DNA of 64,000 bases from Psammoneis japonica. Taxonomy: Eukaryota. The notes under the pieces were generated by a model. That model saw nothing but the letters and a program-made list of their open reading frames with translations. It made no database searches and was not told the DNA's origin. The position numbers and the translations under genes are program-made. The stretch covers positions 372,001 to 436,000 of the forward strand of contig QPGO01000031.1 in assembly GCA_008632985.1 (NCBI GenBank). The letters run 5' to 3'. This document shows positions 8,403-64,000 of this stretch, one piece after another (the stretch's first letter is position 1; every line of letters starts with the position of its first letter).

Positions 8403-9569
8403 ATGAACAATACAAGCACCGGTAGCAACGAAGCTAATTTGAAGGAGAGGGATTATGGCGACGACCACCAAGACCTGAGCAATGATAACAACATGGGGCA
8501 TTCCAGCGACCACGACGAAAAAAGCGACCACCCAAACTCAGCACATGACAACAACTCGACACCATTTAGCAGATGCATGAAGGCAGCCAATTCACGCATG
8601 AAAAACGCCAGCACCCTTGAAAGCATGGCACATGACATGAGACGATTCCCACGGTCTTACTTTGACATCCTCGAACAAGCAGAGAAGGAAGCCAAATCCT
8701 CCGTCCAGCTACGTGATGCTGCTCGCACTCTTGATCGATCGGCAATTGAGGAACAACGCAAAGACAACAACGAATTTATGATTCAAGACTTGAGACTGCG
8801 GATACAAGGACAGGCTTTTGAATGCATAGATAACCCAAGATCAAAAGCCGAACCGACAAAAGAGGAAATCAAGGCTCTTCGGCTACTGATTGACAAGATC
8901 CTTTCGAACGAAGCAGTGAGTGTGAAGAAAATTCTGACGAGACTGGTGGAAAGTTTCGAAAAGGAAATCAAAAGGGAACGGGTACGAGAGATATCCGAAA
9001 ATGAGGTAGATGACTTGAAAGCGGAAAACGGAGCTTGCAGTGACAATGACGAAAAGAGCGACAAACCAAACTCAGCACAGCACGAAGAGTCGACACCGTT
9101 TAGCAGATGCATAAAGGCAGCCAATTCACGCCTAAACAACGCAAGCACCCTTGAAAGCATGGCACAACACATGAGACAATTCCCACGGTCTTACTTTGAC
9201 ATCCTGGAGCAAGCAAAAATAGAGGCTGCATGCTCTGCTCATTATTGCAGCGTCGCTCGTAATCTTGATCGATCAGCAATGGAAAAATCAGACGACAATC
9301 ATGATTTCGTCATTCAAGATTTGAGACTGTGTATACAGGGACAAGCTTTTGAATGCATGGACGACCCAAGATCTAGAGCAAAACCAACTCGAGAGGAAAT
9401 TAAGGCTCTTCACATTCTGATTGACAAGGTTCCTCCGTACGAAGCGGTGAGTGTCAAGAACGTTCTCACGAGACTGGTGGAAAAATACGAAAAGGAAATC
9501 AAATGGGAATGGGTTAGGGAAGCCTCCGAGAAAGTTGCAGAAGATCTTGAAAAAGAAAAAGTCTCTTGA
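8403..9569 (+). CDS. Hypothetical protein built from two ~180-aa internal repeats
   Basis: STPFSRC.KAANSR..NASTLESMA..MR.FPRSYFDILEQA occurs twice; 388-aa ORF. Confidence 0.8.
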   Translation: MNNTSTGSNEANLKERDYGDDHQDLSNDNNMGHSSDHDEKSDHPNSAHDNNSTPFSRCMKAANSRMKNASTLESMAHDMRRFPRSYFDILEQAEKEAKSSVQLRDAARTLDRSAIEEQRKDNNEFMIQDLRLRIQGQAFECIDNPRSKAEPTKEEIKALRLLIDKILSNEAVSVKKILTRLVESFEKEIKRERVREISENEVDDLKAENGACSDNDEKSDKPNSAQHEESTPFSRCIKAANSRLNNASTLESMAQHMRQFPRSYFDILEQAKIEAACSAHYCSVARNLDRSAMEKSDDNHDFVIQDLRLCIQGQAFECMDDPRSRAKPTREEIKALHILIDKVPPYEAVSVKNVLTRLVEKYEKEIKWEWVREASEKVAEDLEKEKVS

Positions 9570-9966
9570 AAGCGGCAAACTTCGGACATATCAATCCCAA
9601 GTAATTCTGAATGCGGCCAACACCAGCGGTCTGATAGATTAATAGATTTTTTGCTATGATATTTTGTATCCGCAGGGTTCTTTCGCTTCTACATCAGAAG
9701 CTAGCAAGATGCAAGTATAACCCTTTCATTCTTCTATGAATTCAAATTCCAAGTCTGTATTGCAACTCGTCGACAAGTCCTCGCAGAATTAATCAACCGC
9801 GTTCCTGCCTTTTGCGAAACTTCTTCGCAGCCGAAACCACGATCTTGCGTCATCGTTTTGAGACATTTAGCTCTTACAGTATGATATATGGTTAGGTATC
9901 CGCCTATACGATTATGATTGCAAACGATAGTCTAGTACTTACAGAGAGAGAGGCCAAAGGACTAAG

Positions 9967-10692
9967 CTACGAACAAGTTCCTTCATCCTTCTTGTTCTCG
10001 ACCATATCCATTCCCATCTCCATTCCCATGACGAAAAGATAAAGTCCCTGTATCGGAAGAGACGACCCTTGATCCAACATTTTGAGAAGCCCACGTTTGA
10101 GTTCCACACGCCGAATGACAATGTGTTCGCCATCATCCGGTCGTGCTTTGGGATTTATGTTGTAAGGATTGTCTAAATCAACCTCCACAACCACAATAAC
10201 TGTAGTCTCGTCTGTCAAGCCTGGACTCATGCATGTGGGAGCCGACACTTGTGGCACGACGGTGCATTTCTCTCCAACAAATCCAGTTTCCTCTCGCAAT
10301 TCACGTAGTGCGGCATCCTCCATGCTTTCGCCATCATCAATCAGTCCGGCTGGAAATTCCACAGTGACTTTGTCGACAGGCGGACGGTACTGCTCCACTA
10401 GAATGGTTTCCACAGTCCCACTTGACTTTTTCTTGAGCAAGGGAACAATTACCACAGCGTCGACACTTGAGACTGACTTTTTGGTGGTGCGAGTTGCCAC
10501 ATCCCACTGGCGAGCAACTCCTTCTTGATCCGTGTAATCCAGCGTTTCGAGCCTGAGCCATTTCGTCGAACCAACCGTGCTGCGCTTGTCAATTCTGGGG
10601 ACAGTGTTAGTATCTTGATTGCTCATGCTAAAGGAAGAAGTAACGACGAGAATAATTGGCAACAGCAGCAGCACCGGTGCCATTGTGGGCAT
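9967..10692 (-). CDS. Nudix hydrolase, ADP-ribose pyrophosphatase (NUDT5-like), with signal peptide
   Basis: EQYRPPV..VEFPAG, Nudix box GLIDDGESMEDAALRELREETG, MSPGLTDET. Confidence 0.92.
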   Translation of the reverse strand: MPTMAPVLLLLPIILVVTSSFSMSNQDTNTVPRIDKRSTVGSTKWLRLETLDYTDQEGVARQWDVATRTTKKSVSSVDAVVIVPLLKKKSSGTVETILVEQYRPPVDKVTVEFPAGLIDDGESMEDAALRELREETGFVGEKCTVVPQVSAPTCMSPGLTDETTVIVVVEVDLDNPYNINPKARPDDGEHIVIRRVELKRGLLKMLDQGSSLPIQGLYLFVMGMEMGMDMVENKKDEGTCS

Positions 10693-11269
10693 AGGCGGAA
10701 TGAAGAGCGCTCTCGCTGAAAAAGATGCTCCGATCAGGTTATGAGATCAACGACTCGACTGTCCGTCCTTCCAACTCTTTGGCAGGCAGTTCCCACTTAG
10801 TTGCGCCTTCTTCTCTCTCAACTCTAGCTCTCGTGAGTGCGCTTGCCTTGGAGACTCACAGAGCGATTTTGAGTTTGCTGTGACACTTGAACACACCTGC
10901 AGCATGCTGTCCCCGACAAAAATTGCAAACACCCTCTCCTGCCTCCTGCGGCACACGCGCCAGTGACAGAGCTCTCCCACACGCCGCGCCCACCACACAG
11001 CACACGCCAGCCAGGCATGTGGTGGCAGCAGTGTGAAAGACACAGAGCAGTGCCACTGTGGGGAAGAGAGTGTTTTCAGATGGGAAAATTCCTTTCAAAT
11101 GAGAGATTTTGAGAGGTGGTCAATCAAGGACATCTGCACTTTTGAGGCAAAAGTGTCGCCATTTTTTCATCATTGTTGGGGGGCTGGCTTCGCTCGCACA
11201 GTGGAGCTCAGGGTCATTTGATGAAAAAATGATGTGACAGTGAGTGCAGGTGGGCTGGCCCTCTCAGTG

Positions 11270-13650
11270 TGAAACAACAAACTCAAAATGGGGCAGTGCC
11301 ACAGCTTTGCAAAGATTGGCTTGTGTCAAGAACACCCCTCCATGGGGACCAAGACAGATTCAAGAAGCCTGCTCTTTTGGCAGATGTGCTGGTCAATGAA
11401 GGGGGGGGGGGGGGAACATTTCATGGCAAAGAAAGCAAGCCTTTAAAAGCAACAGAGTCAGGGGCAAATGAAGAGAAAGCTCACCAGGGTGGGCATCAAA
11501 GAAGTGTGTTTTGGGAGCTCTTTCCAACAATTTGCTCCTTCTCAGATGCACTGCATGGGAGAGCTGCAACTTCAAACTGCTCAGTGCAATGGCTCTCACC
11601 ACACAAAAAGGTTGGCCCTTCAAACTGCTGTGCCACCCTGTTGGTCTGTGGCAGCAGCATTGGAGAGCAACTAAAAAAAGTTAAAGCCCACAACTTCGCC
11701 CCACAACAAACCAGGAGAATCTCCTGTCTCTCCTTCCAATGCACTCAGCAGAACAAAGTTGTCAACATGTGTGTCAAGGAGGGCTCAGCAGTGCAAAAGC
11801 AGTGAGCAGCTGTCTTGCCAAACACAATGTTCCAACTGGAGACTGTCCCAACCCCTTCAGAAGATTCTTTCCCAGTGGAAATTTGCACTTCACACCAAGG
11901 TGTTTGGCAATTCATGCCGCATTGGACTGTCTTAGCACTGGAAAGGCAGGTGCCTCTTATGGGCTGTTTCTAAGACAGCCTCCAGGCATTGCATTGGTGG
12001 GAAGAAGTGCTTTTTTGAGACTTGGCCCTTCACATGCCCCTCAATTCCTTGACTGACTTGTTGACAACCAGCACCCTCATGGCAGGCAGAGACGGCTTGG
12101 TTCTGCACCAGCAAGCTGCACTCCGATGGACAATCACAAATCAAGGCAGTCTGCCAGTTGACTGTGCGGGCCCAGTTTTTGGCAGGTCACCATCATCTTA
12201 CCGTGCAGAGGCTTGTGGCGTGTTGTCAACATTGTGTTTCCCATTTCATGTCCTGGACTGCTGCAAAACATCCAAGCATCAAGGTTTGGAAAACTGGTGT
12301 GACAACAAAGCGTTGGTCAAAGTGTTGCAGCACTTCCATTCTTCCCGGCCGTCCATCAATCCCTGTGTTCAAGACAATCAAGACAAAGACTGCTGCGCTC
12401 ATTGTTGTGGAGCAAACGTGTTGTCCTCAGACTGGGATGTGACAAATGAAATTCTTCAGACAACTGCAGAGATTCAAGAGCTGCTGGATGATTCCTCCAA
12501 CGGACAAGCCCCTCCAGTCAAATGGGTTGAAGTGCATCAGGATTGGCACACCCAACCTGCCGCACTGCCTTTGAACACCAGAGCAACAAACATCCATGCC
12601 AACAGCCTGGCTGGCCGGCATCAATCACAAATCTCCAAGAACGCCACTGAAGTCATCCCTTTTCCACATTGCCAAGCCTGCCTCTCTCTCCCTGATGGCA
12701 CAGCAATGGCCAGCTTAAAAGCCTCAGTCCGGCATGCAGCAACGGCCCCTGCTCTCAAGCAATGCATTCAGGAAAGGAGCCAATGGGACAACTCAGCAGT
12801 GTCTCAGACAGACTGGGAAGTTCACACTGCCCTCATTGAACGGTTCTCCAAGCAACATGTTTCTGCGGTCAAACTCATTCATGAGCTTCTGCCCGCCAAC
12901 AAGACAGCCCACAGATGCAATTCGGTTTGTCCTTGTCATTGCCTGTCATGCAAAAGCCCAATGGAAGACTGCAACAATGTCCTGCAGTGCCTGGAAAACA
13001 AAGACTGGCAATGCACCTTTCTCCAGGGGCTGCGCAAGCATTGTGACAAGATCAACACCATGCCTCCTCCACATGATCTGCTTCTTTCCTCCTTGGAGAC
13101 ATGGCTCCATGGTGAAATGACACATGTCACAGACATGCCCCCAATGCTCTGCTCATTGTGGCAGGTTCAGTCCAGCATTGGATGGAGACAAATCTTCAGC
13201 GACAGCTTCTCCTCACTGTGGAGCACTTTCCAAGAGACACACTTGCACAAAACCGGTTTGCTTGAGCAGTGCTGCAAAGACAATCACCCACCCCCAGTGT
13301 GGGCTGTTCAGATTGGGCCACACATGTGGAGATCATGGTGGGAACTGTGGGAACGATGTGGCAAACATGTGCATGGACACGATGCAGATTCTTGGAAATC
13401 TTCACAATGACAACAAGCAGAGGCTGAACTCACAGCCATTTGCAACAAGAAACAAGACTGTCTTGCAAAGGACAGAGCAGATCTCATGGATTCATTGGAG
13501 GATCACATGCCACACTGCACCTCACAGACTGTGAATTGGGTTGCAACGATCAAGCCCCGCCTCAAAGCCAGCATCAGCAAAGAAGAAAGAAGCAAGGCAT
13601 CTTGCCCTTCCTTGTGGCACACATTCCATTGACAGCCATTTCGGAAGGGG
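11270..13650 (+). mobile_element. Degenerate non-LTR retrotransposon 3' part (RNase H plus C-terminal Cys/His finger)
   Basis: GRDGLV (~SDGS), SSYRAEACGVLS, WCDNKALV, WVEVHQD (~VKGHQD), NIHANSLA, CLSC..EDCNNVLQC, IGWRQIF, WELWERCG. Confidence 0.8.
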
Positions 13651-14199
13651 ACATCATCGTCAGGTGACGTCCCGCCCAGCCAGTCTTTGTTCCTCTTCTG
13701 CCACACAAGCTCAGTGCGCTGGAAGTGTGGGTCAGCTGGCGCCAGCACAGCTGGCAAAGGAGCAACAGCACTTAAAAATTAGATCTGTTTTTTTGTCTTG
13801 CCAAAGATCTCTTCACAGTCAGAAAGCTTTCTGAGTGGCATCTGCAGCACAGGCCTGTTCCAGTTCCAGGTGTTGTGCACGGGTGCGCCATTCATCACTG
13901 GCCTGTTTTTTTCATTTTTGGCACAATGAACTCTTTCAAATTTGATTTTTTTCAAATTGAAGAGTGAGTGTGCACAAAACTTCTAATTTTATCTCGTGTG
14001 CACTCAATTTTCAATTTTTGAAATGATTGAAATTGAAGAAGCTCAGTGTGCCAAATGCAATTTTTGGCTGGCGTTGCACTGCTCCACATGAAAAATGCTC
14101 TCTGCCCACTCACTTTTTCATTTTTCAGAGCTCACATTTTTTGTCTGCTTCAACTCAGCTGATGTCCAAACACACCCTGTTTCTCCAGACACCAGACAG

Positions 14200-17100
14200 T
14201 TAATTTCACTGAACATGCCACAAAATGATGTCCTTTCAACCTCTCCTCCATCTCATCCACCAGCCCTCTTGGTGTGCACATTTTTCACTCAAAGCTCCAA
14301 TGCATCATGGTGAAGAAGAGGAAGCAAGCTGGAGTTGGCCGTCGACACAAGTCAGGAGAGCTGGCAACAACAAAAACAAAAAGTGTCATTGTGAACAAGG
14401 GTCTTTTTTCCAAGACAACAACCTGCCCCCTCCCAAATCAAAGCTGAAGAAACAACAACCACTCCCTCCAACATCACCTCTCACAATGCCGCCATCACTC
14501 CCTCTGTTGCTCCCACTGACCAAACTCCTGTCAACCCAAAACCCTCTGCAGAGTGCTTTGCTTTCAACCCTTCTTGGGCCTTTGATGAGACCCAGAGATC
14601 TCCAACAACCACTTTGTCATGCAGCAGTCACAAAACAAGAGATGGCATCTCATCTTGTGCTGCCACTCTGGAGCAAGAACAAGCCCGCACCTTCTTGCAT
14701 GCACTGCAGTTTCCCAACTCAGCTTGCCATGTTGAGGCTTGTGATTTGACACCACCAAAAATGAAGGCTGTTGCTTTGCAAATGACCAAACAGCTGGGCA
14801 AAATGTGGGGATGTGCCAACAACAAAAGCAACAGTGGATGCTGCACTGATGACAAAAAATGTTTTGTCCATTCAGCGGCAATTGGAGTCTCCAGTTCTCC
14901 AGAAAGACCTGTCAATGAGCCCAATTTGTCTTTCCAAGGACTGTGCCAGTGCACTTGGCCTAAACAAAAAAAACTGCTCATTGACAAATGAAGCAGGGAA
15001 AGATTGCCAGAGGAACAGCCTTGATTGAGAACAAAGGAGATGTCATGTGGTCTTCAGTGCAACCCTGTTGGTGACCTCGCAAAGTTTCCCATGAGATCTG
15101 CAAAGCCTTTGAGCATGGGTTGTCAAATCATCCTGACATGGTGCAGTCTCCCAACTCAAGAGACATGATTTTCATTAAAGATGAAGATGGAAACAAAAAA
15201 TGAGTGAAGAAATGGTCGTGCAACATGTCCATGCATGAGCTCCATGATGACATGTTGAAGCCTGTGGGTTCCGGTGGATTTGAACATGCCCATGATGCCA
15301 ATGGCAAGACAATCATCAGCGGCACAATGTTTCACTTTTTGATCCCCAAGCAATGTAAAAAAATGAAGGCCAGTCAGTGCAGCATGTGTCAATGCAGCAA
15401 TTGCATGAGTGCACACTTTCTACAAGATGCATTGAACAGGTTTCAAAGGAGGCTTTTAAAAGAGATGCAGATGAAGCAAAAGCAGCTGAAGGTTGCAAAT
15501 GATGACCCTGAAAGCTTCAAGAACTGTGACACTGCCATTGTCAAATTGGAGAATCAAATTTTCCATTGTCAAGAGGAAGTGTTTGGCTCCAATTTCAGCA
15601 ACCTTCATCCCAAAGCTCAAGATGCAGCTGCAACTGTCATTTGCAGCAATGTTGATGGTCAGGATCATCCTTGTTGGAAATGCAGCCATTTTGGGTGAAT
15701 GCAAGCATTGCCCATCCTGTCCAACTCCATTGTTGGAACAGAATGAAAGTCTCATTGCACCCCAAGTTTTGTTTCATTCAAAGGCATTTGACTGTGGGAT
15801 GTTGTTCCAAGCATGGCATGTTCATGGAAGAAAGCCATGCTTGCAAGGCACATCCAGATGGGAACAAGCATGCAAAGGTCAAACAAAAGACCTTGTTGAC
15901 AAGGTTCTGCAAACCAATCAGGGTCTTTGCAAAAAAAAAACTGCACTCTAAGTTCAAAGAAGCTGCATTGCCACCTTCCCCGCATGGCCATTCTTGGGAA
16001 AAATCATCGCATGTGGACATCTGCTGACTGCTCAGAGCATCTTCCATCTGAGCTTGACAATCAAATTTGTGGGGATCATTGTGGCAAGAGCCAAACAATG
16101 TCCATTAAAGACAGAGTTTGTGATGTGAGATTGTTGACAATGAGGCTGAGAAAACATGTCATGGGCGGGTTCTCTCTAATTCTTCCAAGCAAGATGCCAC
16201 CACAACCAATGCTCACTTGGAAAAGTTCATCACATGGCCAAAAAACCATGGGCTGTAGCATCAGGTGTGTGGCTTGTGATTTGGAATTCGCAGATGGTTG
16301 TGCCAAATGGCGCCAACATGCTTTGGTGCTGTGCTTGTTGTTGGTGTTTGCCCACAAATGCAAAGTTGTTTTTAACTGCGCTGTTGGAGCACCTGGGCAT
16401 GGCAAAGGAGGGGCTCATGGAGTTGGAGCCCACATCAAATCACTCACGCATTGAGTGAGAAATGCAGTCCATGGCTGTTGCAGGAGTCAATGATGAGGAT
16501 GGGAAAATCAGAGCTGATGGTGCTTTTGTCATTGATGACAACCATGTTGCAGCAGAGCACAGTTGCATGCAGGAATGTTTGAAATTTCTTGAAAAGAAAA
16601 AAAGTGCCAACGGCGCAGTTGGTGACAGGAAACATGCTTTGAGAGTGTCTCTTTGAAAGTTGAAAGAAAGGGTGTGTCATCTGCAAGAAGCAGATGAAGT
16701 TCTTGGCTCTTCAACTGAAGCCTCAAGTTGCAAGGATTGGCACAACTGTGCAAGAACTGCATCAGCACCATTGTGGCGTTGTTGCCATGCACCATTTTTG
16801 ATTTGAACCCTTTTTTCTCATTGGTTGGGTTGCCATGCAATGCATTCCTTGTGCTTGTCATGGCTGCCCAGATTGGCTCAAATGACCCATTTGGCAAATG
16901 ATGTCAGCCCAACCAAGCAGCCTCAACATGCAGCTGGCAACCAAACTTGCAAACACTGGCTGTGGCCCATTTTTGAATGATTCGCAAGTTTGTCAGGTGA
17001 TTCAAACAACTGAGAGTGACTCCAATGAGGTGCAGCTGGTTCACAAATCTGTGTTGGACCTTTTGACTGAAGAAATGGCAGAGAAAATTGTTGTGAAGAG

Positions 17101-17450
17101 CTGTGCTGCTGCACTGCATTCTGAATCTTGTGATGAATTCCATCTGCTGCAATGGGGTGAAGTGCCCCAAAAAGCACAAGAGGAAGATGCAGTGTGGAGC
17201 AAGTTTGGGCTGGTGAATGGGTTTGCAAATGAGTGTGTCCAAATCCTGTTCCAAGGGCCAAAGGATGGTGCTCTCCTGGAGACACCACCCATGCTGCAAG
17301 GCAATGCAGCAGTGGTTGTTCACCAGATGGCACAAAGTCATGCAGCCATCATTGCAGGTCATCACATCAAATTTGCCACCCACTTCCAAGGGAACGGTTC
17401 AATCCAAACTGGCAAAGCTTCATCTTTGAGCTCATTGGCAAGAACTTTCC
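14200..17450 (+). mobile_element. Degenerate DDE DNA-transposon transposase (Sola-like), frameshifted
   Basis: HPDMVQSP, ELHDDML..GGF..IISGTM, CSMCQCSNC, ADGCAKW, GAPGHGKGGAHG and IPCAC motifs in order across several frames. Confidence 0.65.
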
Positions 17451-17499
17451 CTCCAAGTGGCTGCTCAGCATGTTCCTTGCAAGCAACATGAGATTGTTG

Positions 17500-20400
17500 C
17501 AGGTGTTGGTCTGGTTGGCAGATGTTTGTGATCTCTCTCATTTCCAGGTCACTGTCACAATGAACAATGCCAACCAGGACAAAAACGTGCAAGTGTCTTT
17601 CTTTCCTTGCAAGATTCTCACAGGCAGGCTGCTCATCAGCAAGTTCACATCCATTGATGTCAGTGCACTTCCTTCCAGCAACATGCAAAAGCTGCACTCT
17701 GACTTCAGATCTTTCAAATCTTTCCAAACATCTGGAAACTGCATCTTGAAGTTGTTGCACTCAGCCCAATCCAGGGTCAAATGCATCACATGGTTCTTGC
17801 CCTGCAGGTTGTGACCAACAAAATCAGTGCCCTGTGCAAGACGTGAAAGTTTTCTCCTGACTCAATCTCTTGAGTCTTGCAACCTGCGGTGCATTGCAAA
17901 TTGCACCCACCTTGTGCTTGATCTTGTTCTTGCATTTTCAATTTAATGCATGGACACAGTTGGGCTTGTGTTCAGCACATTTGATGAGGCCCACACATGT
18001 GTCCACAGGACAGCCATCAAATGCATTGGCACTTTGGGAAAGCCATTCTTCACACAACATGATGCCCTCATTTGGCTCATCAAAGCAACCAAACAAGTGA
18101 GGAACAGCTCATGCAGAATCTCCAGGCCACAGTCCCCCCCCCATGAACTTGGATCAAACTAAATGAATTTTGTAGCCTGCAACACATTGCTTGAGCATCG
18201 TTGCACATTCATTTGGTCATCTCCTTTTCTTGTTGGTGCGGCACTTGTTTTTGTTCAAACAACAAAATGAAGGTGCTCTTGGTGCTCTTCATTTTGACTT
18301 TGAGCCATGAAGGCCAATGAGATCCTTGTCCGTCATTGCTCACTCCAGCATGATGATGTCTTTCATGAGCTCCACCTGGCATTTGCAACATGTGCCACCT
18401 GCCCTCCTCTCCTTCTTCTCCACCTTCATGTCTCTGAGAGTGCCAATTTTTCTGCAACCTCCAGAAAAAGACTTGCACAACTGCTCCTGTGGACACTGAC
18501 AGCCAGAAAGAATCTGACTGTCCCTGTCAGTCATTGGAACACCCACAACACATGGTTGCACCAACAACCAACAAACAATGTCAAACAATGCCTCTGATGG
18601 CATCATCTTGTGGGGGGTGCATGGGCCAAACAGGACAATGTTTTGGCAACCATGAATGCTGGCACAACATGTGAGCACTTTGCATTGTGTGTCAGTGGGA
18701 AGTTTGGCAAGGCAGGGATCATTCTCCACCGTGTCATTGTCCAATTCTTCAGGATCATTCCTGTCACAATGCTTGTCATGAAAAACACAACAGCTGTTGT
18801 TGTGCACATGCGACTTTTTCAACTTGAGACATTTGACACCTGGTGTGCAATGCTGCTTTTTGTCCACCTGCTTCCTTTCAGCATCTTCTGATTTAACAGA
18901 CCAACAATTGTGTGTTTCACACCACAGCTGTTTTGCAAATAAAATGAGATGATTCATGTCACAATGAAACCAGTGACACACAATCCCTTCAATGCCAACA
19001 TTTCAAATTTGTTCTTCACTCCCAACCTGGACTTAATTTGCCAGCAACTGTCAAACATGATCTTGCCAAAAGGCAGCCACACAATCTTTTTTGGGTCTCT
19101 GGCCCACATTTGAGGGTTGCACTTTCCTAAATTGTCAAGATGGACCTGGCAGTTGTCTTAAATTTTGCTCTTGGCAGTGCTAAAATGAGTCTCAGCAACT
19201 CGGCTTTCAATTTCAGCACAAGTGGTTCCTCCCAAAAGTCGCCATCTTTGCTCAACTCAGTGGTGCAGTTGATGTGCTCTTGGCTAGAATGAGACAATGC
19301 CACAATGATTGCAGAGCTCATCAGAGCAACCAGCTCCATTGCACACAGTGCAACAGTGTTGTCTCCATTGTTTTTCATGAGATTGTCTCACTCACAGTGC
19401 TTGTGGACATCCACCAAGTCTGAACATTGAGACATGGTGTCCGCAATGTTCTCAAAACCCAACACTCCCATGCAACAAGTCATCAGCAACTTCTGACAAT
19501 GAAGACATGCCCCCCGCTCCTTGTCACAGCAGCCAAACAAAACAGCTTGACCAGTCCAATCAAAAAGGACAAACACAATGATTTGACAGTGCAGTCATCT
19601 GTTTGTTGTTGCCCACCTCAATCATCACAACCTTGGCGTAGTTTGTCACACGCAGCGTGGACACAATCAACAAGCCCACCAACTCCTTTCTTGATGTGGT
19701 GCAACAAGACAACAGCATTGTGTTTCTTCATGGGCAGCATCCCTGATTGATTCCTGATGGCACTGCAGCCAACATCAACATGTCATTGTGCTTCTTGTCA
19801 AATGTGTTCTCTGTTTTCTCATTTGCAGTTGATTCTCACTGCAAAGTTCATGAACAAACCAAATGGCATCACAGTTGTGGAACATGCCTGGTTGTTTGGC
19901 ACTCTTGAACCCATCCACTGCACCATTCCTGTGACAAAGAGGGTGAAAGAGAGGGCTGGTCTTCTTCTTGGCTTTGCAATCTTAAGTGGCCCAAATCTGC
20001 AAGACCTTGTGGGCATGTCTGGGGATCAACAAAAGTTTGAAGAGGTTGCAGGTGCCAAGTTTTGGAGCCACCTGCCTTTGCACAACATTCATCTGTTGGT
20101 TTGACTGAAATTCTTGATGAAAGAGGACACCCTTCAACTGGCTTGCAAAATTGTTTGCTTGAGGGGCATTGCCACCGATGAAGAATTGGCCAGCCCCAGC
20201 TTTTTCTTGGTGACTGCTTTGGCCAATGTGTCCATTGTGATTGCACTGATGATTGCACACACTTCTGTTTGCAGGACAAATTCACTCCAGGGAGGGGGGG
20301 CAACATCAGCCAGTTGTTGCAAAAGTGACACAGGTGAACAGAGGCAGCCTTCAAGGCAGCTCAGTGGCAGCTGTCATCAGAAACCATTGGGGCAAACATG

Positions 20401-21932
20401 TGAGTTTGGCAGAAATTCAGAACAGGTGAATGCAAAGCAACTAAAAAAGGAGGCATGCAAAGCAACTGGCACACAAAAAGCATGTGCGCGCAGCATCTTG
20501 CATGAACCACAACACACAAAACCAATGTGCTGAATTCCAAACAAGAAAATGCAAAGAAATTGTGTCATTTGCAACAACAGTGACTGCACAGAGCCACAAC
20601 TGCATTGTGACAATGATGTGACTTTCAAATGAAAGGAATGGACAGCTCCATGCAACCACAAGGGTGAAAAGGGGGTTGCAGAGCAGTGACAGCAGTGTGT
20701 GCTGCATTGTGGCTGACATTGTGTGTGGGGTGTTTTTGTGCATGGACTGCACATGCATGCAGAAGCCTTGGCATTGATCAAAGCATTGCCAGAACAACAT
20801 CAAATGCCAACTGACACCATTCTTCCAGTGACGAAATGAGTGCCTTGGTTGTTCGAGACATGCGCTGCTCTTGTCATGAACACACACCGCATCATCAAAA
20901 CAATCAATGTTCACCAAAAGCCCATGAGTGCAAGCTCTGCCAGGTGGAGACAGAATTGTCTGGTGCTGAAACCTGTGCAGAAAATCTTGCTTGACAGATT
21001 GTGGATCACCTGAGGCTGGAACAGGCCCGCAGCATTTCCAGACCAATCAGCGCCAGCAAGCCCTGGAAGGATGCTCGTGAGATTCTTGGAAATCCCATGC
21101 GCCCTTTGTTTGCTGCCTGCAGGCTGAGCCAAGAAGATTTTCTGTTGCTGGCACCTGGTGTTTGTGAGCTCACAAGAGGTGGTGGAGGACAGCACTGATG
21201 CTGTGCACGCCCCACTTTTGTGCACATTCCATTTGCCAAGCCTTGTGCCAACCTTGGCCCTTGTTGCTCCCCAGAATGACAATTTTGTCATCCTCTAACA
21301 CAACATTCTGCTGCCATTTTGACATGAGTTGGTGTTCAACCTCACATGAGGAGCATGCTCAATGTGCCAGCACAGACTCTGTGCTGCCAGCTGGCGAGCA
21401 CTCACATTCTTTGTGACACCGTGCAAGCAATGTTTTCCAGGGAGGGGTTGCACAGATCTCTTTCTCTTTGCAATGGTTGGTGTTGGTTGGCCTCAAAAAT
21501 GAGGTCACTTGCACTGCCTTTCTGCATGTGCTCATTGACCCACACACCCCTCTCTCTGCCATTTTTTGCTGACAGGCAAGACCTCCTTGTGTTGTTTTGC
21601 ACGGTCGTGCCCGTCGCCACTTTCTGCGCTCTTCATTCAATGCCTCGCCCCTTCAAGTGCATGCTCAGGGGTCACTCCAGCTGAGACAAGCTTGTCATGT
21701 GTGGACTGAAATGCTGCCAACAACCTCTTTGGTGCATGCAGTGGCTCTGCGACACAATGCACAACTGGTGGCGCAAGGTTGCACAGCACATTGTCCTTCT
21801 TGTGGCATGTTTTGTTGAGCCAAACCGATGTGCTGTCACTCCCACTTCTGTTCCACGGACCTCAGCAAAGGGTACAGACTGTACTTTGTTGGTTTTTCCA
21901 AGGGCTTTGACCCAGAGATCGCTGATTCCCAT
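17500..21932 (-). pseudogene. Degraded large gene starting with an XPG/Exo1-like nuclease domain, probably element-borne
   Basis: N-terminus MGISDLWVKAL..EVRGTEVGV; CSSCEVEHQL..VVLEDDKIVILG at ~21358-21270 (~APYEA..QL..SEDSD); downstream extent uncertain. Confidence 0.5.
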
Positions 21933-22166
21933 TGTCGATGTTTCGAGACCGTGGCTGCAAAAAAGCGCCGCGCACGTGAATGAGTCATGCGAAATCGAGT
22001 TTTTTAGTCGTGCAGCGATGCGAGGTGCGCGATGTTTTGTTCGCTTCGGATTCATTCAAACACCAAAAACTGGAGACACAATACATTGTACGCACATTGA
22101 CCGCACAACGAATCTTCCTGGCATCATCACCAACTTGTCATTCCCCAAGAAGAAAAGAAAAGAATC

Positions 22167-23015
22167 ATGATACACCAGGTATCCCCTGAAAAACAGTCAC
22201 AAAGACGTTCCAGTGAACCTTGGATTTCAAAAGGGTGCAAGACATATCGGCGCCACCAAGTTTTCGTATCTTTGTTTGTTGTACTCTATTTGTTTCAAGC
22301 TCGGATGCAATTTCAATTCAGAACAACGCAAGACCATGCAAATTCAGTTACAAAAGACTGGTCTAAAATGAGAATTGTAATATATCTCACGACGCATCTA
22401 TCCGAACAACATTTGCTTTCCTTGGAAAAGTGTTGGCCGACCATGGTTCACAAGTCGAAAATGCTACAAAACGCAAATATATTTCTCTATGCAACTGAAA
22501 CACCAGATGATGCTGTAGTGGATGTTGCTTTCAATCAGACGAGAGGTGTATCGCGTATGAAATTGTATAAGAATCCTGGAAAACAAGAAGGAGCAATCCT
22601 TCCAGTCGTCGAGGCGATCGAAAACGTCGACGCATGGTTTGCAGCCTACGATTGGGTCGTTCGAATCAATCCGGACGTGTTGATTCTTAACGACACTGAT
22701 TTTTATCCTCTCATGAATGACCCTAATGTGGATGCTATTTTGGTGAACTGTAGGCCTGAACCACAACTCAAGATCCACACTGACTTTTTTGCCGTGAGGC
22801 CTCGTGCATTGCCCAAGGATGTTTTAGAGTACAAAGGTAAAGATGGGAGGATCAGTGCGGAACTACATTTCACAAAACAAATGCAAAAGGTTTTAGAAAG
22901 CAGGAGACATGCCTGGATGCCAGGTGTTGGTAAAGAGAAGAAAGGATGTCGAGTGTTTGGTCCCTCTGTCGTGCATAAACACCAATGGTTGAAGAAGTGC
23001 ACGAAGTTGTTTTGA
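22167..23015 (+). CDS. Type II membrane glycosyltransferase-like protein
   Basis: N-terminal TM segment, YDWVVRINPDV motif, 282-aa ORF with normal composition. Confidence 0.7.
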   Translation: MIHQVSPEKQSQRRSSEPWISKGCKTYRRHQVFVSLFVVLYLFQARMQFQFRTTQDHANSVTKDWSKMRIVIYLTTHLSEQHLLSLEKCWPTMVHKSKMLQNANIFLYATETPDDAVVDVAFNQTRGVSRMKLYKNPGKQEGAILPVVEAIENVDAWFAAYDWVVRINPDVLILNDTDFYPLMNDPNVDAILVNCRPEPQLKIHTDFFAVRPRALPKDVLEYKGKDGRISAELHFTKQMQKVLESRRHAWMPGVGKEKKGCRVFGPSVVHKHQWLKKCTKLF

Positions 23016-23153
23016 GATCTCTATCTTGAGCTTTGTCGAGGTGTAGCAGCAGTTTCCATCATTTGAGAACGTGCTGCAGCAGCCACAATGCTGATGTTTG
23101 CGCCGCGCCAGAAAAAGCAAAACCTTTTCGCTCGATTCTTTTCACTCTCCGCA

Positions 23154-24230
23154 ACAGGGCTACTCTTGCTGGGAAGGGAGGCATTATCAAATTAAGTCTT
23201 TAGTTAACTATTCTGGTGTAAAGCTACTCTCTAGAGAGTGAATCATCTAGGGCCCTACAGTACACTGTACCGTACTGACAAAAAAACCCTCTCTAGAGTA
23301 GAGAGCAAAAAATGCGGTATCTTGTAACATCTTCATCTAGAGGCGGATGCGCTCCAACAACGCGCACCAAAAACGATAAACGATAAACGATAAAATATAA
23401 ACGAAACGCAAAGAGAGACGATGACGTGAACGTCCTTCATCATCATCTTCTTCTGATAGTCCCTCTGAATAGGTCAAGCCAATGAGGGACAAACAGCAAG
23501 AAGATTCCCTGAGGGAGCTACTTGAGAAGCAATATCTTCATGCACAAGAATACTGCAACTCTCAAACTAGATACCACCAGGCGCTTGCTTCGTCGAGTGG
23601 CTCGGCACACACTTCTTCCGTGGAGAAGCGGCTTAACAGCGACTCGCTAAGACAGGCGACAATGGACATGATGGAGTGTGGAGACGCCGTTAGGTCTGAT
23701 CTCGAGGAGCTACAGGGCTACTCTTGCTGGGAAGGGATGCATCATCAAATTGAGCCTTTAGTTCACTCTTCTGGTGTAAAACTACTCTCTCTAGAGAGTA
23801 GCTAGAGCGCTGACAACTGACAAAACTTAGAGGCAGAAAATGCGGCATCTTGTAACATCTAGGCGGATGCGCTCCAACAACGCGCACCAAAACTTACAAC
23901 AAACATAACACTGAAGACGCAAAGAAGACGATGACGGGAACGGGAACGTCGTTCATCATCATCATCATCTTCTGATAGTCCCTCTGAATAGGTCAAGGCA
24001 ATGAGCGACAAACAGCAAGAAGATTCCCTGAGGCAGCTACTTGAGAAGCAATATCTTCATGCACAAGAATACTGCAACTCTCAAACTAGATACCACCAGG
24101 CGCTTGGTTCGTCGAGTGGCTCGGCACACACTTCTTCCGTGGAGAAGAGGCTTAACAGCGACTCGTTAAAACAAGCGACAATGGAAATGATGGAGTGTGG
24201 AGACACCGTTAGGTCTGATCTCGAGGAGCT
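23154..24230 (+). repeat. Tandem duplication of ~0.55 kb (23154-23711, 23712-24230) covering promoter and 5' CDS
   Basis: acagggctactcttgctgggaaggga at 23154 and 23712; near-identical coding starts at 23482 and 24001. Confidence 0.92.
23482..23805 (+). pseudogene. Truncated duplicate of 24001-24441
   Basis: Nearly identical until SDLEEL, then reads into the next repeat unit's upstream DNA. Confidence 0.75.
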
Positions 24231-24441
24231 GGTATTGTACAAGAACAACAAGGTTGTACAGGAACACCTGGAGATAAGCCGACGAGCGATCAAAACAATT
24301 TATCAAGCGGGAGGAAGACTTCATGCCAATGGCATACCAGCTGGAAAAGACGACTATGATACTAAAATGATTGCTCTGGCAACGCTTAACGCGTCAATAG
24401 CGAAAGTGAAATCACTCTGCCTATCTACAAAGGAAGGGTGA
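24001..24441 (+). CDS. Hypothetical helical protein
   Basis: 146-aa ORF from ATG, complete copy. Confidence 0.65.
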   Translation: MSDKQQEDSLRQLLEKQYLHAQEYCNSQTRYHQALGSSSGSAHTSSVEKRLNSDSLKQATMEMMECGDTVRSDLEELVLYKNNKVVQEHLEISRRAIKTIYQAGGRLHANGIPAGKDDYDTKMIALATLNASIAKVKSLCLSTKEG

Positions 24442-24510
24442 GAAGCCGAACAGAGAACTTGTTTTTCACAGACAAGTTGAAAGCTATTCTAAGATTATTT
24501 CCGGTAGTTT

Positions 24511-25476: not shown

Positions 25477-25649
25477 TGTCACCACTCTCGGTCATCGAAC
25501 AGTGATGTTCTACGTATTTTTTCCATATTTGATGTTGTATCCGATCTTCTCTCTTTGTGATCGAAGTTGAAGTAAAACGTCACGGTGCGCGCATGCCCGC
25601 CTCTCAAATTTCAAAATCCAACGCTTACGTAGCATGACGCCCGCGACCC

Positions 25650-28300
25650 GCGACCCGCGATGAATGATGGGACCGACGCTGAATTGGCATGGCCTTTCCT
25701 GAGCTGGCAGTTGCAGAAACATCAGCCATTTGTCTGGTTAATGTTCCATGCATCTAAACTTGCATTGCAAGACTCCAAACATTCAGAGTGGCAGCGGTGC
25801 TTTGCAAGTGCTTTTGTCATGTGTCCCATTTCCCGCAGCTTTTGATCGTTTGTCATCAATGCGCCAATTCTTTTTTTCCTTTTCCATTCTCATCCAACTG
25901 TTTGCTTGGTCAACAAGAGAAGGGAGAGCATTTGTCTGACTTGTGACCTGCAAGATGGTCGCCAACATGTCTCTTGCACCAGGCAGCAGATGCAGCAGCA
26001 TTGGCGAGTGCTCAAGCCGATGTTTTGGTTCGAAGCTTCACCACAGGCACTGCCGCTGTCTCTTGTGGATGAACTTTGATGCTTCCAAAGAATCAGCTTG
26101 GTCACAATGCCTTTGTCTTGTTCAAGGTGTGGCAGACGACCGTCCCCCAGGGGGTGATCCAGAGCTTTGGATGAGCCAAGCTTGACACACTCGACGTCAC
26201 ACAAAATCATGTTGTGTCCTTTTTTTGCAGCCGCATTTAATGTGTTGGTCAATCTCTTTAGAGAAGTTGTGATGGTCCAAGTGTTCCTGGCACTGGGATC
26301 CAGAGTGGCCTCTCCCAGTCCAGTGGGTGCCAGGCAGAAACTCTCAAGGCAGCAGGTGTGTGGGACAGTCGCTCTGCACAGTGCAAGCATTGGCCTTTGC
26401 AAACAATGACCACACAGGTGCAATGGGGCAAGGATTTTTCAGACAAGAGATCAGCTTGGTTGATGCTGGGTTGAAGGTCAACTGAAAGGTGTGAGCAAAA
26501 AAGGTTGGTTGCAGTTTGGCATCAAAAAAAGTCATTTTGTCGGGATGGACACCACAGCTGTCGACTGCCAACAGGCCGTCATGACAGTCATCAATTTTCA
26601 GAGCTCCTCTTTGCCCTTGCTCTGCTTGTTGAGCTGCTTGCTCACTTTTCAAGAATGTTGGCTCACTGCCTTCCTTGCGGGACACGCAAACATTTGCCAC
26701 AAAGGCCTTGGCCTGGGCAAGACAATCTTCCTCAGTCATGTCAGGAGGACCTTTCAAGCGGAGGTCCCAGTCTCTTGTTTGTTTGGTTTCCAGAGAATGA
26801 TGTTCTCCAGGAGCCATTGTGGAAAGCAATCTTCTATTTCCCAGTCCACTGCACTGGCACCAGCAGCCTTGTTTGCTGAAAATTGGAGCAGCGATGACTT
26901 TCCAGAATGGAGTGGCTGGCCAACCCGTGATTGTGCTCTTCAAGGTTCTTGCAAAAGGCATCATCCCTGGTGTGCATCTTTTGGGTGGTGAAGCTGCAAC
27001 CAGCAGCAAGGGTCAGCTTTGAGAAGTCCCAGGTGCAAACGGGTCCAGTGTCGGCAAGGTGACAGAGTGCATCGGTGCCGCACTGGCCCTTGCCAATCAG
27101 GACTCGAGATGCTGAATTTTTGCCACCCTGTGCCACTCACTTGTTGTTGGCTTTCTGGAGCTGCTGAGCATGGTTGCATGTAACTTCTTGGGAAATGTCG
27201 GAGGTTCAAAGGCGGTGATGCTAAAGAGCATCAGCAAATCAGGGTGGTTTGGCATTTCTGGCTTTGTGGAGGTGAGGCACTGCGGCAACAGAAACAGCAA
27301 AGAACGTCTTCTCCTCTTTCAATTGCATTAAAAGGGGTGCAAGTGCAACATCACTTAGCTGCTGCCCATCAAAGTCTGACAAGTCTCGTCGTTCAAACTC
27401 AAAGCTCATCTGTCACGTGTCTTTCGTTCGACGCACAACATCGAAACATGCGATGATGGGAGCAGATGCATGTTTGAGCGCTGACAAAGTGGTTTTGCTT
27501 TCCGTCACAAGTGCGAGCCGAAGCAAGGTCACGGTTGAGAACAAGCACAATCCGACATCGTCGTAAAATGCTGATTGGATCCCGAAAATTTCACACCCCG
27601 TGGCCGCCAATGCTGTCGAGTGAGTGACACATCCATGAAATTACACAAAGACTGCCACGTTTGCAAATGACGAAGCCGCAGAGACGACACCACGCTTGCA
27701 TTGAGGACAACTGCAGGTGAGCAGAAATGACTTTGGATTGTCGACTGTGCAGCAGCAGAGGTCTCGGTGATCTTTCAGCTTTGGAGCAGCACTGCCAAGA
27801 CAAGCATGGGCGACATGCATGCCAGATGTGTCGCAAAGACTTTGGTTCCAGTCAAGCTCTGGACCAGCACAAGTCGTCCACAAACACGGCAGCAAACCAA
27901 GTGGACAGCCAGCAGCAATCAAGAGTCACGACCACGAGGTGCCCTGCCCAGGAATTCAAGGACACTGGATGAGACGAAACGCGTTTCTAAAAGCGTTTTC
28001 GGACAAGCGCAAGTCGTTTGGCCGTCACTGCTGCCACAAATGCCGAAAGGAATGGGGCTCAGCTCACGCCTTTGCCCAATGCCATCAAGGATGCCAACGC
28101 TGTGAACTTAAATCATTTCCGTGTTGCCTGTGGGTCAATGCAGGGTATCGGGACTCTCGAAAAGCGGCGGTGGACGAGGAGGAAGCTCCTCATGACAGTG
28201 CACACTGTGGTGCTTGCCGGGCTGGTGTGTGTTGCCGGATGGAGGGCCACTTCTAGCATTTCGACTGAGGGTCGGGCAGCAAAAGAAATCAAAGTCATCA
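25650..28300. other. TpA-depleted block B containing degraded genes
   Basis: TA nearly absent; CpG partly retained, especially 27.3-28.3 kb. Confidence 0.85.
27727..28256 (+). pseudogene. C2H2 zinc fingers plus 3CxxC-type zinc domain, frameshifted and hypermutated
   Basis: CRLC..LEQHCQDKH, CQMCRKDFGSSQALDQH; second frame FGRHCCHKCRKEWGSAH..QGCQRC..PHDSAHCGAC. Confidence 0.7.
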
Positions 28301-28677
28301 TAAATCTCTTGCAACAGTCATCAAATGATCGGTTGTGTTCCACTTTTTCAAATTTATGAAGCCTCGTGGGTGCGGCTTCAGTGGTGCAAGAGGACTCGCC
28401 ACCTGTCTGTAAGATTTGGATTCAGACGGGGAATGGAGATGGCCTCTGAACATTGGCGTCGACTTCTGTTGGGAATTCAGCACAGGCTGTTCCCACCAAC
28501 TGGTTGCATGAGGTTCCAATCTAGTGGACGGCTGTGGAGGGATCGACGCTGTGCGCTGAATGCCGAAACAAGAAACCGAGGCTGAAATCGAGAAAGTGCC
28601 AATCACATTTCATTCACAGGCCGGAACCGTCACCAAGATGCACCTGTAGATGACAATGAGAAATCACAACTAGAACG

Positions 28678-29061
28678 TCATATTCCGTCTCCTCCAAGAT
28701 CTTCAAAGGTTTTGCTCCACCGGGCCTGTTCGCGCTTGAGATTCTCCAACACAAACTTTTCGCCTTGCTGGGCTTGATGATCCTCGTGCCAGTCTTCAAC
28801 ACGTCGGTGCCCTGATTGTGCTTGAACAGATGATGCTTCGTCATTCATGACGGTTTCTTGAGAAATGTCGTCATCATCCACTGGCATGTGATGGGGTGGA
28901 TCTCCACTTCTCATCGGCATTGACGATGCGCGCTTTCGACCATGGCATCCAAGAACAAAACTTGCAGCGCATTGATCAAGCAACAGCAAGTACAGCAGCA
29001 CCACAAATCTTCTGCAAGCTGGGGTCCTCCTATTTTCAACAGCTGATAACATCCTTCTCAT
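28678..29061 (-). CDS. Small hypothetical protein with signal peptide / plastid-type presequence
   Basis: Hydrophobic stretch then CAASFVLG; acidic C-terminus. Confidence 0.55.
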   Translation of the reverse strand: MRRMLSAVENRRTPACRRFVVLLYLLLLDQCAASFVLGCHGRKRASSMPMRSGDPPHHMPVDDDDISQETVMNDEASSVQAQSGHRRVEDWHEDHQAQQGEKFVLENLKREQARWSKTFEDLGGDGI

Positions 29062-29235
29062 CTCGTTATCATTATGTTGCGTCCATTGAGAAGCGTTTTT
29101 ATCAATGGTTAGGGGAACTCTACAGTAGCGTGAAGCGTGCGCAAAGAGAAAGAATCATCATCCAGATTCAAGATTCAAGATCTTCCAAGTTCTGCAGTCT
29201 GGAAGTCATTCGCGCGATGATGCTGCACACGACGC

Positions 29236-62309: not shown

Positions 62310-62399
62310 GACGACGGCAACAACACAATAGCGGTATCAACAAGACATGCAATGTGCGATGTATCGTCATACTGAAATTGTCGGTCGTCAAATTCGGAC

Positions 62400-64000
62400 G
62401 GACGCCGGATGGACACACGCATCTTCCATCTGCACTGACTGTGCTGTCCGTCTTCATTTCTTTGCTCTCCCGGGCAAACCCACAACGCGGGAAAAACACA
62501 GTGAGTCGCGAAGTTTGTCAGGCACACAGGGCCAGTGATCCTCGATCTCGACACTCAGCACCAGATGGCACCGCGTGTTGATGAGCATGAAGCTGGTCAG
62601 CACCACATGGGTGCAAAACACACAACGTTGGTCGACGATGGGACACTCTCTGTGCTGCTGGTGCGTTGCTGCCACCCCGAGAGACTCAGAGCCAGTGAGC
62701 AGCCTGGATCAGCACATCACATGATTGTCAGTGAACTCCAGCAAGCTCAGATCATGATTTTGGTGCAGACATGCAGACTCAGGTGGGTTGTTTTCCAGCA
62801 GCAGTGCAGCACACTTGAGTGCTTCGTGGGCATTGAGAGATTGCAGCTCCTTTGTCAGTGCAGAGGTTGGATGACATGGAGAAAGAGACACATGCCACCA
62901 TGCCAGCCAAACAATTGTGGCAGCATCAGAGTGCACGACATCGTAATGTCTGCACACATGACAAAAATGTGTTGCTGTGTTGCAAAATCTGCTTGTCTGC
63001 ACATGGTGGTTTTTGCCATTCAGTCAGTTGTCAATCTCCTGCTGTTCTTCATGTTTGAACACAGGTGCTTTTTAATTTTTGTGCTCAGCCTTTTTCACAA
63101 CTGCTGACGATCTTTAACGACAAGCCAAACATTGCAATTGCATGCAATGAAATTTTCATCATGTGAAGTGTGCACCAATTGTTCAACCAATGACTGTGCT
63201 CCAATTGGCCTGTTCGTCCGCATCGTCCTCTTCATTCCATGTGTCTTGTCCGCTCTCTTGCAAGAATTTCAAACACACATGCCGCTGCCATGTTGGATGT
63301 TTCCTCGTCACTGTTCCAAAAAAGCCACACTGCATTTCTTGCATTTGGGCGAACATCATCGAGAGGAAGAGGTCCCTCGAAACGCAGAATCGTGTCGCTG
63401 CTCCCCTCTTGACGTCGTGTCATCTGCTTCTTTTTCTCTTTCTTCATTTTTCCCATCCTGTTTTTCTCTTCCTTCTTCGTCTTGGCGCTGCCTGTTTTCA
63501 CCGTCTCCGGCATCTTTCCATCCGAATCCTTCTTTTTCATTGATCCTGTCACCGTCACCTTCATCGTGTGTGACTTTGTTTTGGATCCATGTTTCTGACT
63601 TCTCTCTGTGCTGTCCCCATTTCCGAATGTTTCTTTGTGATTGTTCGCATGCGTCACTTGAAGGCACCCATGTGTTCTTCATGCACCTTAACGCGCATGT
63701 AGAAATCCATGTTGTTTTCCAGCACATGCACCCTTTCTCCTGATGCTGTTCCATGCAACATTTTCTTCCATCAATTCTACACTCCGCACTGCCCTTTCCC
63801 GGTGCAATCTCACGCAGGATTTCTCTGGGAGAAGTTGCGTGCGCGTCTGGTGGGTTTTTGTGTGTGAAACTCCAAATCCTGCCAGGCGCGTGTGTGACTT
63901 CTCCCACGCACCACTCTGGTGTGTTTCTGCAGAAACCAGAATTTTGTGACTGACGCACGACCAATCTGGTGAATGCAATGGCGGACCCACGACCACAACA
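62400..64000. other. TpA-depleted block C (runs off the window), degraded coding-like DNA
   Basis: About 5 TA dinucleotides counted in 63001-64000 while CpG is still common. Confidence 0.88.

Follow-up and report, generated by a model that had tools for sequence, protein, structure and literature searches.

What removes one dinucleotide almost completely from eleven kilobases of a chromosome and spares the genes on either side? The question is raised by a stretch of 64,000 nucleotides from Psammoneis japonica (assembly GCA_008632985.1, contig QPGO01000031.1, positions 372,001 to 436,000; hereafter the window). An earlier note on this DNA, made from its letters, had described a block of ~11 kb that is poor in TpA and CpG and rich in TpG and CpA, and had attributed the loss of TpA to a directional A:T to G:C mutator of silenced repeats. 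The block is real: between the last ordinary TA on its left, at 10825, and the first on its right, at 21873, we counted 37 TA and 113 CG, against expectations of 458 and 603. Expected counts, here and throughout, were derived from the gene-rich background of the window itself, which stands in for ancestral composition. The window also contains two additional TpA-erased regions beyond the one first noted (blocks 2 and 3, Table 1). We show that a TpA-specific A:T to G:C process acted on this DNA in place, on both strands, regionally and apart from the decay of CpG.

TpA-specific transitions acting in place on both strands

The observed/expected (O/E) ratios in 1-kb bins from 11001 to 22000 were 0.01–0.09 for TpA, 0.07–0.40 for CpG, 1.54–2.08 for TpG and 1.50–1.94 for CpA. 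Most of the remaining bins of the window had TpA at ~0.5–0.7 and CpG at ~0.8–1.3. The two TpA reported earlier for 12001–13020 agree with the two that we counted in 12001–13000, and the longest run without TA in block 1 extends for 1571 bp (16373–17944), an event with a chance of ~10^-29 at the background frequency of TA. Tyrosine over six reading frames is at 0.04%, versus 2.32% in the background, and the GC content of the blocks is 0.44–0.52 versus 0.43–0.51 in their flanks. What was lost reappears almost entirely in two other dinucleotides. Between 11000 and 21800, TA is at 0.34% as against 4.13% in the background and CG at 0.94% as against 5.53%, and TG stands at 10.74% (7.47% in the background) and CA at 11.97% (7.25%), a gain of TpG plus CpA about equal to the amount lost as TpA plus CpG. 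The total of pyrimidine-purine (YpR) steps is 23.99% versus 24.38% in the background, and the frequencies of purine/pyrimidine dinucleotides are the same as in the background. A block altered by transitions at YpR steps alone would be expected to look like this.

Table 1. TpA-erased regions of the window, their components and a second version of one of them.
Feature	Coordinates	Strand	Remarks
Block 1, TpA-erased	10826..21873		TA loss 92%, CG loss 81%
CpG-decayed core of block 1	11100..21600		CG 92 observed vs 573 expected; loss 84%
Single-copy DNA left of the LINE relic	10826..11661		1 TA vs 35 expected (97% loss)
5'-truncated non-LTR (LINE-type) retrotransposon relic	11662..13794	+	Coding match 11662–13680
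Multi-copy repeat(s), type not assigned	13795..21500		TA loss 92%, CG loss 87%; ~7.7 kb
Block 2, single-copy, TpA-erased, between two diverging genes	25756..28990		TA loss 85%; depth 54–77
Second version, TpA-richer (allele or recent paralogue)	28031..29054		Contigs 13 and 14 of run X2
Block 3, TpA-erased, continues past the window end	62371..64000		TA loss 91%, CG loss 26%

The direction of these transitions can be read from the relic of a retrotransposon lacking long terminal repeats (non-LTR), of the long interspersed nuclear element (LINE) type. Its 462-aa open reading frame (ORF) at 12022 has one Tyr, as had been noticed, together with 27 Cys and 29 His, and the previously remarked motif RAEACG is found at nt 12202. 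A word-indexed homology search with this ORF gave no match, whereas an exhaustive HMMER search returned 1158 relatives at E of at most 0.001 (best E = 4.9e-64); these are proteins of ~1,200–2,100 aa, and the relic matches their C-terminal ~430 residues. When 13 long relatives were scanned with Pfam, the AP-endonuclease family Exo_endo_phos was found in seven (four above and three below the curated cut-off), RVT_1 in two and RNase_H in one, all of these below the cut-off, and four had no family at all; the relic itself has no Pfam match, either in its ORFs or in six read-through frames. All 151 high-scoring segment pairs of a tblastn search with 150 relatives lie inside 11662–13680 on the + strand and correspond to residues 977–1540 of the 1560-aa relative P0121, a part that covers the RNase H and the C-terminal domain. 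The homology to polyproteins with AP-endonuclease and reverse transcriptase (and RNase H), together with the 5' truncation, identifies the element as a LINE; behind 13794, 22 contigs of the sample depart from the window sequence with loose ends.

An objection named at the outset was that intact members of this family might be equally TpA-poor. The relatives found give no sign of this. In the matched segments of 150 relatives Tyr has a median of 2.98% and a lowest value of 0.49%, versus 0.22% in the relic, and none of the 150 relatives listed shows the signature (lowest whole-protein Tyr 0.83%, Cys normal). A metagenome scan with P0121 found a single 2465-bp locus of a relative, of normal composition (TpA O/E 0.75, CpG O/E 1.29); the same scan with the relic ORF found no relative. 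For tests on single columns we aligned the relatives with a coverage of 380 residues or more, 66 in number, and called a column consensus Tyr where at least 40% of them have Tyr. Of the eight such columns, four are Cys (TGY) in the relic, one is His (CAY), one is Tyr and two have other residues. The products predicted for a transition at TpA, Cys or His, thus stand at 5/8 columns; in the 66 homologues these products occur there at 7% on average and at no more than 25% (P = 8e-5 at the mean homologue rate, 0.027 at the maximum). The CpG counterpart of this test is weaker: of 14 columns with consensus Arg, five are still Arg in the relic and five are Cys, His, Gln or Trp, residues for which the homologues average 9.6% (p = 0.008 at that average, 0.15 at the maximum rate). 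Since both Cys and His products occur in the relic, both strands were hit.

Other copies of the repeated DNA in the same sample are consistent with this. Ten contigs have CA where the window has TG at 15672/15673, and at 18006/7 and 18011/2 contigs have TG where the window has CA. No single mutation yields adjacent double differences of this kind, whereas an ancestral TA or CG that was hit separately on its two strands can, and because the copies differ at the same site they were hit after they had separated. The skew between TG and CA is small across the blocks, from -0.17 to +0.07. Given that single-copy DNA was hit, that the LINE relic has both products, that this skew is small and that copies differ, we argue that the TpA process works on integrated chromosomal DNA and not on an RNA copy. 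Within block 1, CpA exceeds TpG by 12–17% on the + strand in 11801–13800 (the LINE) and in 18801–19800, and the two are balanced elsewhere; this excess may stem from a strand bias of the process or from the ancestral composition.

A second version of part of block 2 adds a comparison at the level of single nucleotides. Contigs of run X2 are identical to the window over the flanking genes, with no other letter in five pieces, and its contigs 13 and 14 differ from the window at 22 and 15 positions, 37 in all, over a stretch in which the window has 13 TA where 42 are expected (Table 1). Over all nine X2 contigs placed, which include a probable paralogue piece at 29327–29500, there are 27 transitions with G/C in the window and A/T in the read and seven in reverse (p = 8e-4). 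Among the 12 transitions listed (28598–29015), nine have TA in the read and TG or CA in the window, against 37.5% by chance (p = 0.009), and at 28598 the main DNA run, X1, is itself split, with a depth of 30.2 of 65.6. The stretch at 28.0–29.05 kb thus looks like two homologues of which one was hit. Mass balance, 5/8 Tyr columns and 9/12 listed transitions agree, if indirectly, that the A:T to G:C changes are confined to TpA, and with the TG/CA differences between copies they uphold the directional process that had been postulated. The X2 contigs were placed only within 9501–10834, 22174–25508 and 27510–29500 and not on the block interiors, a lack of cover that we do not take as a sign of silencing. 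They lie on gene regions (9978–10689, 22439–25497 and 28031–29500), in a transcriptome-like manner; if X2 is RNA, the expressed version of 28.0–29.05 kb is the TA-richer one and not the window's.

Which TA survived depends on the neighbouring bases. Of the 37 residual TA in block 1, 27 are TTAA (14) or CTAA/TTAG (13). Relative to background density, the survival is 0.77 for TTAA, 0.38 for CTAA and at most 0.056 for every other context, and no ATAT, ATAC, ATAG or GTAC is left; contexts survive in the same order in blocks 2 and 3. A per-strand model with one flank is better than a flank-free model by a likelihood ratio (LR) of 106 with three degrees of freedom. If the base after the target A is the one that counts, the relative rates are 1.0 for T, 0.78 for C, 0.35 for G and 0.04 for A, but by strand symmetry the survival data fit equally well with the base two positions before the target A. 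The tetranucleotides produced were also compared between the two options: over all blocks the correlation was r = +0.42 for the base after A and -0.40 for the alternative, and in the 2.6-kb CpG-normal subset it had the opposite sign (-0.21 and +0.23).

Separation from CpG decay and from repeats

The loss of CpG in the blocks has the pattern of methylated-CpG decay. It is strong in the core of block 1 (Table 1), reaches 62% in block 2, where it is confined to ~25800–27400, and depends on the flanks: the surviving fraction is 0.47 for GCGC, 0.31 for CCGC and 0.036 for TCGA, with AT-flanked sites lost most and GC-flanked sites least. The loss of TpA is nonetheless separable from it, because 27401–28990 in block 2 lost 80% of its TA and 1% of its CG, which bears out the earlier suggestion that two processes are at work. 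Block 3, with 91% of TA lost versus 26% of CG, shows a further uncoupling. The CpG-decayed core of block 1 is also narrower than its TpA-erased zone by ~270 bp per side, with normal CG per 200 bp at 10801–11000 and from 21601 on, where TA is already or still missing.

That repeats are the target, as had been proposed, does not hold as a requirement. As a rough guide to copy number we used the summed word depth of contigs from the same sample, which is ~62 in unique flanks. It is 56.4 in 10835–11501, and both the DNA left of the LINE relic and block 2 have flank-like depth (54–77). Because these single-copy stretches were erased as thoroughly as the rest (97% and 85% of TA), repetition is not required. 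The larger part of block 1, 13795–21500, is truly repeated, with a summed depth of 244–1199 versus ~62 on the flanks, and of 909 contigs that match at a likeness of at least 80%, 447 are less than 90% alike. No long terminal repeat (LTR) or terminal inverted repeat (TIR) was found in it, in either plain or purine/pyrimidine-collapsed sequence; in the collapsed search of 10000–23000 the longest direct match was 27, versus 24–29 in five shuffles. Self-BLAST of the window gave 11 repeat pairs, none within or between blocks. Pfam scans of 22 block ORFs and of six read-through frames over all three blocks found only a sub-threshold C2H2 finger near 27811–27880. The earlier description of the block as several unrelated element relics therefore stands for the LINE relic and lacks a family match for the ~7.7-kb multi-copy part; similarly, "transposon DNA" is right for part of block 1, putative for most of it and wrong as a requirement, given that single-copy DNA was equally hit. 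A second motif remarked on earlier, CEVEHQL, is present on the minus strand at nt 21346, in sequence without identified relatives.

The sub-threshold finger is a zf-C2H2_jaz match on the + strand, in the ORF at 27771–28253, with 21 bits versus a cut-off of 22.6, and it falls in the TpA-poor but CpG-normal part of block 2. A zinc-finger motif is among the domains enriched in TpA-poor genes of the alga Bigelowiella natans according to a recent preprint (bioRxiv 10.64898/2026.01.13.699255).

Mechanism, alternatives and known systems

We consider it probable that two context-specific transition processes acted in place on chosen nuclear stretches, a TpA mutator and the decay of methylated CpG. The mutator would be regional and near saturation, turning TpA into TpG or CpA by an A to G change on one strand or the other, with TTAA and CTAA/TTAG sites largely escaping. 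In a narrower core, methylated CpG would have decayed to TpG or CpA, the methylation being read from composition. The natural target of tRNA adenosine deaminases, A34, follows a conserved U33, that is, it lies in a U-A step, and the requirement for T before A would recall this target. A nucleic-acid deaminase that is drawn to silenced or foreign chromatin might turn adenine into inosine, in line with the proposal made for B. natans. On these analogies, enzymatic deamination of adenine, recruited to repressed chromatin around insertions, would probably be the chemistry involved. A role of the TpA process in genome defence would be a further step, suggested by which DNA is hit.

A wider reading can be offered as a possibility, if a doubtful one: that adenine deamination at TpA is an old, chromatin-coupled genome defence of at least stramenopiles and rhizarians. 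Such a defence would saturate silenced insertions, whether repeated or single. It would have a TadA/ADAT-like preference for a target A with T on its 5' side and a pyrimidine on its 3' side, TAA being refractory, and it would act on one homologue at a time, creeping into neighbouring promoters with consequences for allele-specific expression and the evolution of host genes.

Among the alternatives, a different chemistry with the same pattern and regional targeting has to be taken most seriously, although we think it unlikely. Thymine modified by an enzyme at TpA (5-hydroxymethyluracil or base-J-like) and mispairing with G, or a TpA-specific lesion followed by error-prone repair, would give T to C changes, and since A to G on one strand is indistinguishable by sequence from T to C on the other, all of our data fit either. 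The -1 T that matches the U33-A34 context of tRNA deaminases, and the preference of the B. natans authors for adenine deamination, speak for deamination by analogy only. Editing before integration, in which retroelement RNA or double-stranded RNA is hyper-edited from A to I with a 5' U preference (ADAR- or ADAT-like) and then reverse transcribed and inserted, would suit the LINE and the taste of ADAR-type editing for a U before the edited A. We give it little credence: both products occur on the sense strand of the LINE (Tyr to Cys four times, Tyr to His once) with little skew across the blocks, single-copy DNA outside identified elements was equally erased, copies that differ as TG versus CA at one site were hit after separation, and a single-copy stretch has a TA-richer second version. 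Nor does one enzyme of dual specificity, deaminating C at CpG and A at TpA, seem at all probable. The two depletions do coincide over most of block 1, and the preprint on B. natans (bioRxiv 10.64898/2026.01.13.699255) cites reports of ADAT2 enzymes with activity on A as well as C in DNA. The uncoupling in 27401–28990 and in block 3, and the overshoot of the TpA-erased zone on both sides of the core of block 1, tell against it, and because the target base is 3' in TpA and 5' in CpG, the two do not form one simple context.

Two further alternatives would remove the need for any mutator, and we regard both as barely credible. The first is that foreign or selfish DNA had always avoided TA and CG, or was under selection against both. 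Most of the block DNA has no identified relatives, which would leave room for this; yet in the one component that has them, Tyr and Arg conserved in the family were changed to exactly the predicted codons, the relatives are normal in Tyr and the relative's DNA in both dinucleotides, and copies show TG/CA differences. The near absence of Tyr from all six frames is, in addition, incompatible with working genes. The other is an artefact of sequencing or assembly, with modified bases (5-methylcytosine, or a modified A at TpA) miscalled as T or G by a long-read basecaller, and systematic long-read miscalls at methylated motifs are known. But k-mer contigs of run X1, at depth ~61–75, match 9501–11416 and 11473–13488 with no other letter, 14409–15201 with one and 15878–16685 with none, and because exact k-mer contigs at such depth need accurate reads, an artefact is hardly to be expected. 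The X1 reads may come from the same sample as the assembly, so that this exact match is not fully independent.

Several points weigh against the two-process account that we prefer. The use of the gene-rich background as an ancestral proxy for inserted DNA is an assumption that underlies all loss figures. The Tyr test depends on eight columns, with p = 0.027 at the most extreme homologue rate, and at that rate the Arg test is not significant (p = 0.15). Polarity was taken from proteins and from contigs of the sample. The second version at 28.0–29.05 kb could be a paralogue rather than an allele, the type of run X2 was guessed ("DNA?"), and the transitions listed come from 40 of 1247 difference rows. 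The test on product tetranucleotides, finally, gave opposite weak signs in two data sets.

The TpA half of this account has a precedent in a chlorarachniophyte, a rhizarian. As Mettrop et al. describe in their preprint of April 2026 (bioRxiv 10.64898/2026.01.13.699255), two integrated viral regions account for 231 of the 302 nuclear point mutations seen in B. natans mutation-accumulation lines, and these hypermutable regions mutate at ~6e-7 per site per generation. Almost all hypermutations were A to G or T to C, and every such one was at TpA. One hypermutable region is single-copy, the genome has 124 clusters of 1-kb windows that are poor in TpA and rich in CpA and TpG, and reverse-transcriptase and DDE domains are over-represented among its TpA-poor genes. 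What the authors suggest is a defence in which an ADAT2-like enzyme deaminates adenine. The earlier opinion that the mutator had not been described thus has to be given up, as the same TpA to TpG/CpA signature was measured there de novo. In the literature we found no report of a TpA-erasing signature in diatoms, the B. natans preprint being the sole match overall.

The window shares with B. natans the signature itself, its regional limits and its action on single-copy DNA. In contrast to B. natans, the host here is a diatom-like stramenopile; we regard this case as the same kind of mutator in a second major eukaryotic lineage, with new features. The erasure is near saturation (TpA O/E 0.01–0.09), unlike the giant-virus region of B. 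natans, for which the preprint gives a Rho of 0.45. CpG decay coincides with it here, whereas the main text of the preprint contains no occurrence of CpG, and the sparing of TTAA and CTAA is likewise particular to our case so far as that main text goes, in which "TTAA", "flanking" and "trinucleotide" have no occurrence. Mutations in B. natans were seen de novo, whereas here the signature is known from composition and the comparison of sequences; the TA-richer second version at 28.0–29.05 kb hints at recent activity.

Other systems resemble parts of the pattern. One is fungal repeat-induced point mutation (RIP), which likewise hypermutates selfish DNA region by region and to saturation, by transitions only, and ruins its coding capacity. 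RIP, however, changes C to T mostly at CpA, creates TpA and lowers GC, whereas here TpA is down by 92% and GC is unchanged or slightly up; and RIP needs duplicated sequence and a sexual cycle, whereas here single-copy DNA was hit and no repeats inside the window link the blocks. Decay of methyl-CpG in silenced transposons has its counterpart in the cores, with CpG O/E of 0.07–0.4 and a gain of TpG and CpA, but it covers the CpG half only, as TpA was lost also where CpG is intact. To our knowledge, ADARs are metazoan. Hyper-editing of repeat-derived double-stranded RNA by ADAR and editing of retroelement cDNA by APOBEC3 are likewise context-specific, deaminase-style hypermutations of selfish elements; their substrate is RNA or not yet integrated cDNA, and they mark one strand of the retro-copies, whereas here both products are found in the LINE, the erasure continues into adjoining single-copy DNA and products are specific to the copy. 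The B. natans preprint (bioRxiv 10.64898/2026.01.13.699255) also cites a preference of ADARs for a U ahead of the edited A. TadA and ADAT2-ADAT3 target a U-A step, and an ADAT2 homologue is the candidate named in that text. No TadA/ADAT-like gene was found within the window.

With the signature at saturation in a diatom-like genome, the process would not be peculiar to one species and may be widespread in the stramenopile-alveolate-rhizarian (SAR) lineages, which include major marine primary producers. The flank rule at TTAA/CTAA, and the fact that the process depends neither on CpG decay nor on copy number, are handles for finding the enzyme, and the question would shift to diatoms, among which there are genetically tractable species. 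Annotation can draw a lesson as well: because TAA/TAG stops and Tyr are lost, TpA-erased regions yield long false ORFs and evade domain searches.

Block borders, flanking genes and other features of the window

The limits of the blocks are sharp (10826/21873, 25756/28990 and 62371), one component is a LINE, and the neighbouring genes, which lie in long uninterrupted ORFs, are normal in TpA. Gene ends and block ends pair as 10746/10826, 21873/22101, 25491/25756, 28990/28851 and 62336/62371, and all five junctions are at the 5' ends of genes (p = 0.03 under random orientation); the blocks thus fill the space between diverging genes. This may reflect an insertion preference for promoter regions. 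The TpA erasure ends no more than ~100–300 bp from the 5' ends of the flanking genes, and in block 2 the erased zone (end ~28990) reaches the start region of an RmuC gene, in which the first Met of the ORF is at ~28926. As erased zones abut or reach the 5' starts of genes, the process operates very close to host promoters. The block-facing ends of two genes are somewhat low in TA, with six in 10201–10600 (NUDIX) and ten in 25001–25400 (formyl-transferase) where ~16 are expected in each, which could be mild spill-over or local GC content.

The flanking genes encode a NUDIX protein, a formyl-transferase with an ACT domain, two RmuC-family proteins, a MYND-finger protein, a protein with KH and endonuclease/phosphatase domains and an organelle-type release factor. 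Among the best 120 relatives listed for the release factor, identities are up to 67–68%; the six with a readable, in part truncated, organism label (Ditylum, Cylindrotheca twice, and labels beginning Amphi, Chaeto and Aulac) are at 59–61% and are all diatoms. A 1018-aa host ORF has one database relative. From its genes the host looks like a diatom or a close relative, sparsely sampled in databases, and is not the intron-dense B. natans.

The two RmuC-family genes form an inverted duplicate, 29226–30323 / 54269–55371, which is 92.8% identical over 1105 bp and is followed by weaker homology at 30434–30730 / 53027–53357 (74%); both copies match Pfam RmuC. The copies, which lie outside the block, differ by 71 substitutions, with TA in the block-adjacent copy at six sites and the reverse at two, a difference that tells nothing about the process. 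Tandem internal repeats unrelated to the blocks occur in or near host ORFs at 8501–9560 (units of 526–531 bp, 78%), at 23151–24230 (units of ~560 bp, 83%) and at 36530–36861 (units of ~111 bp, 90–94%).

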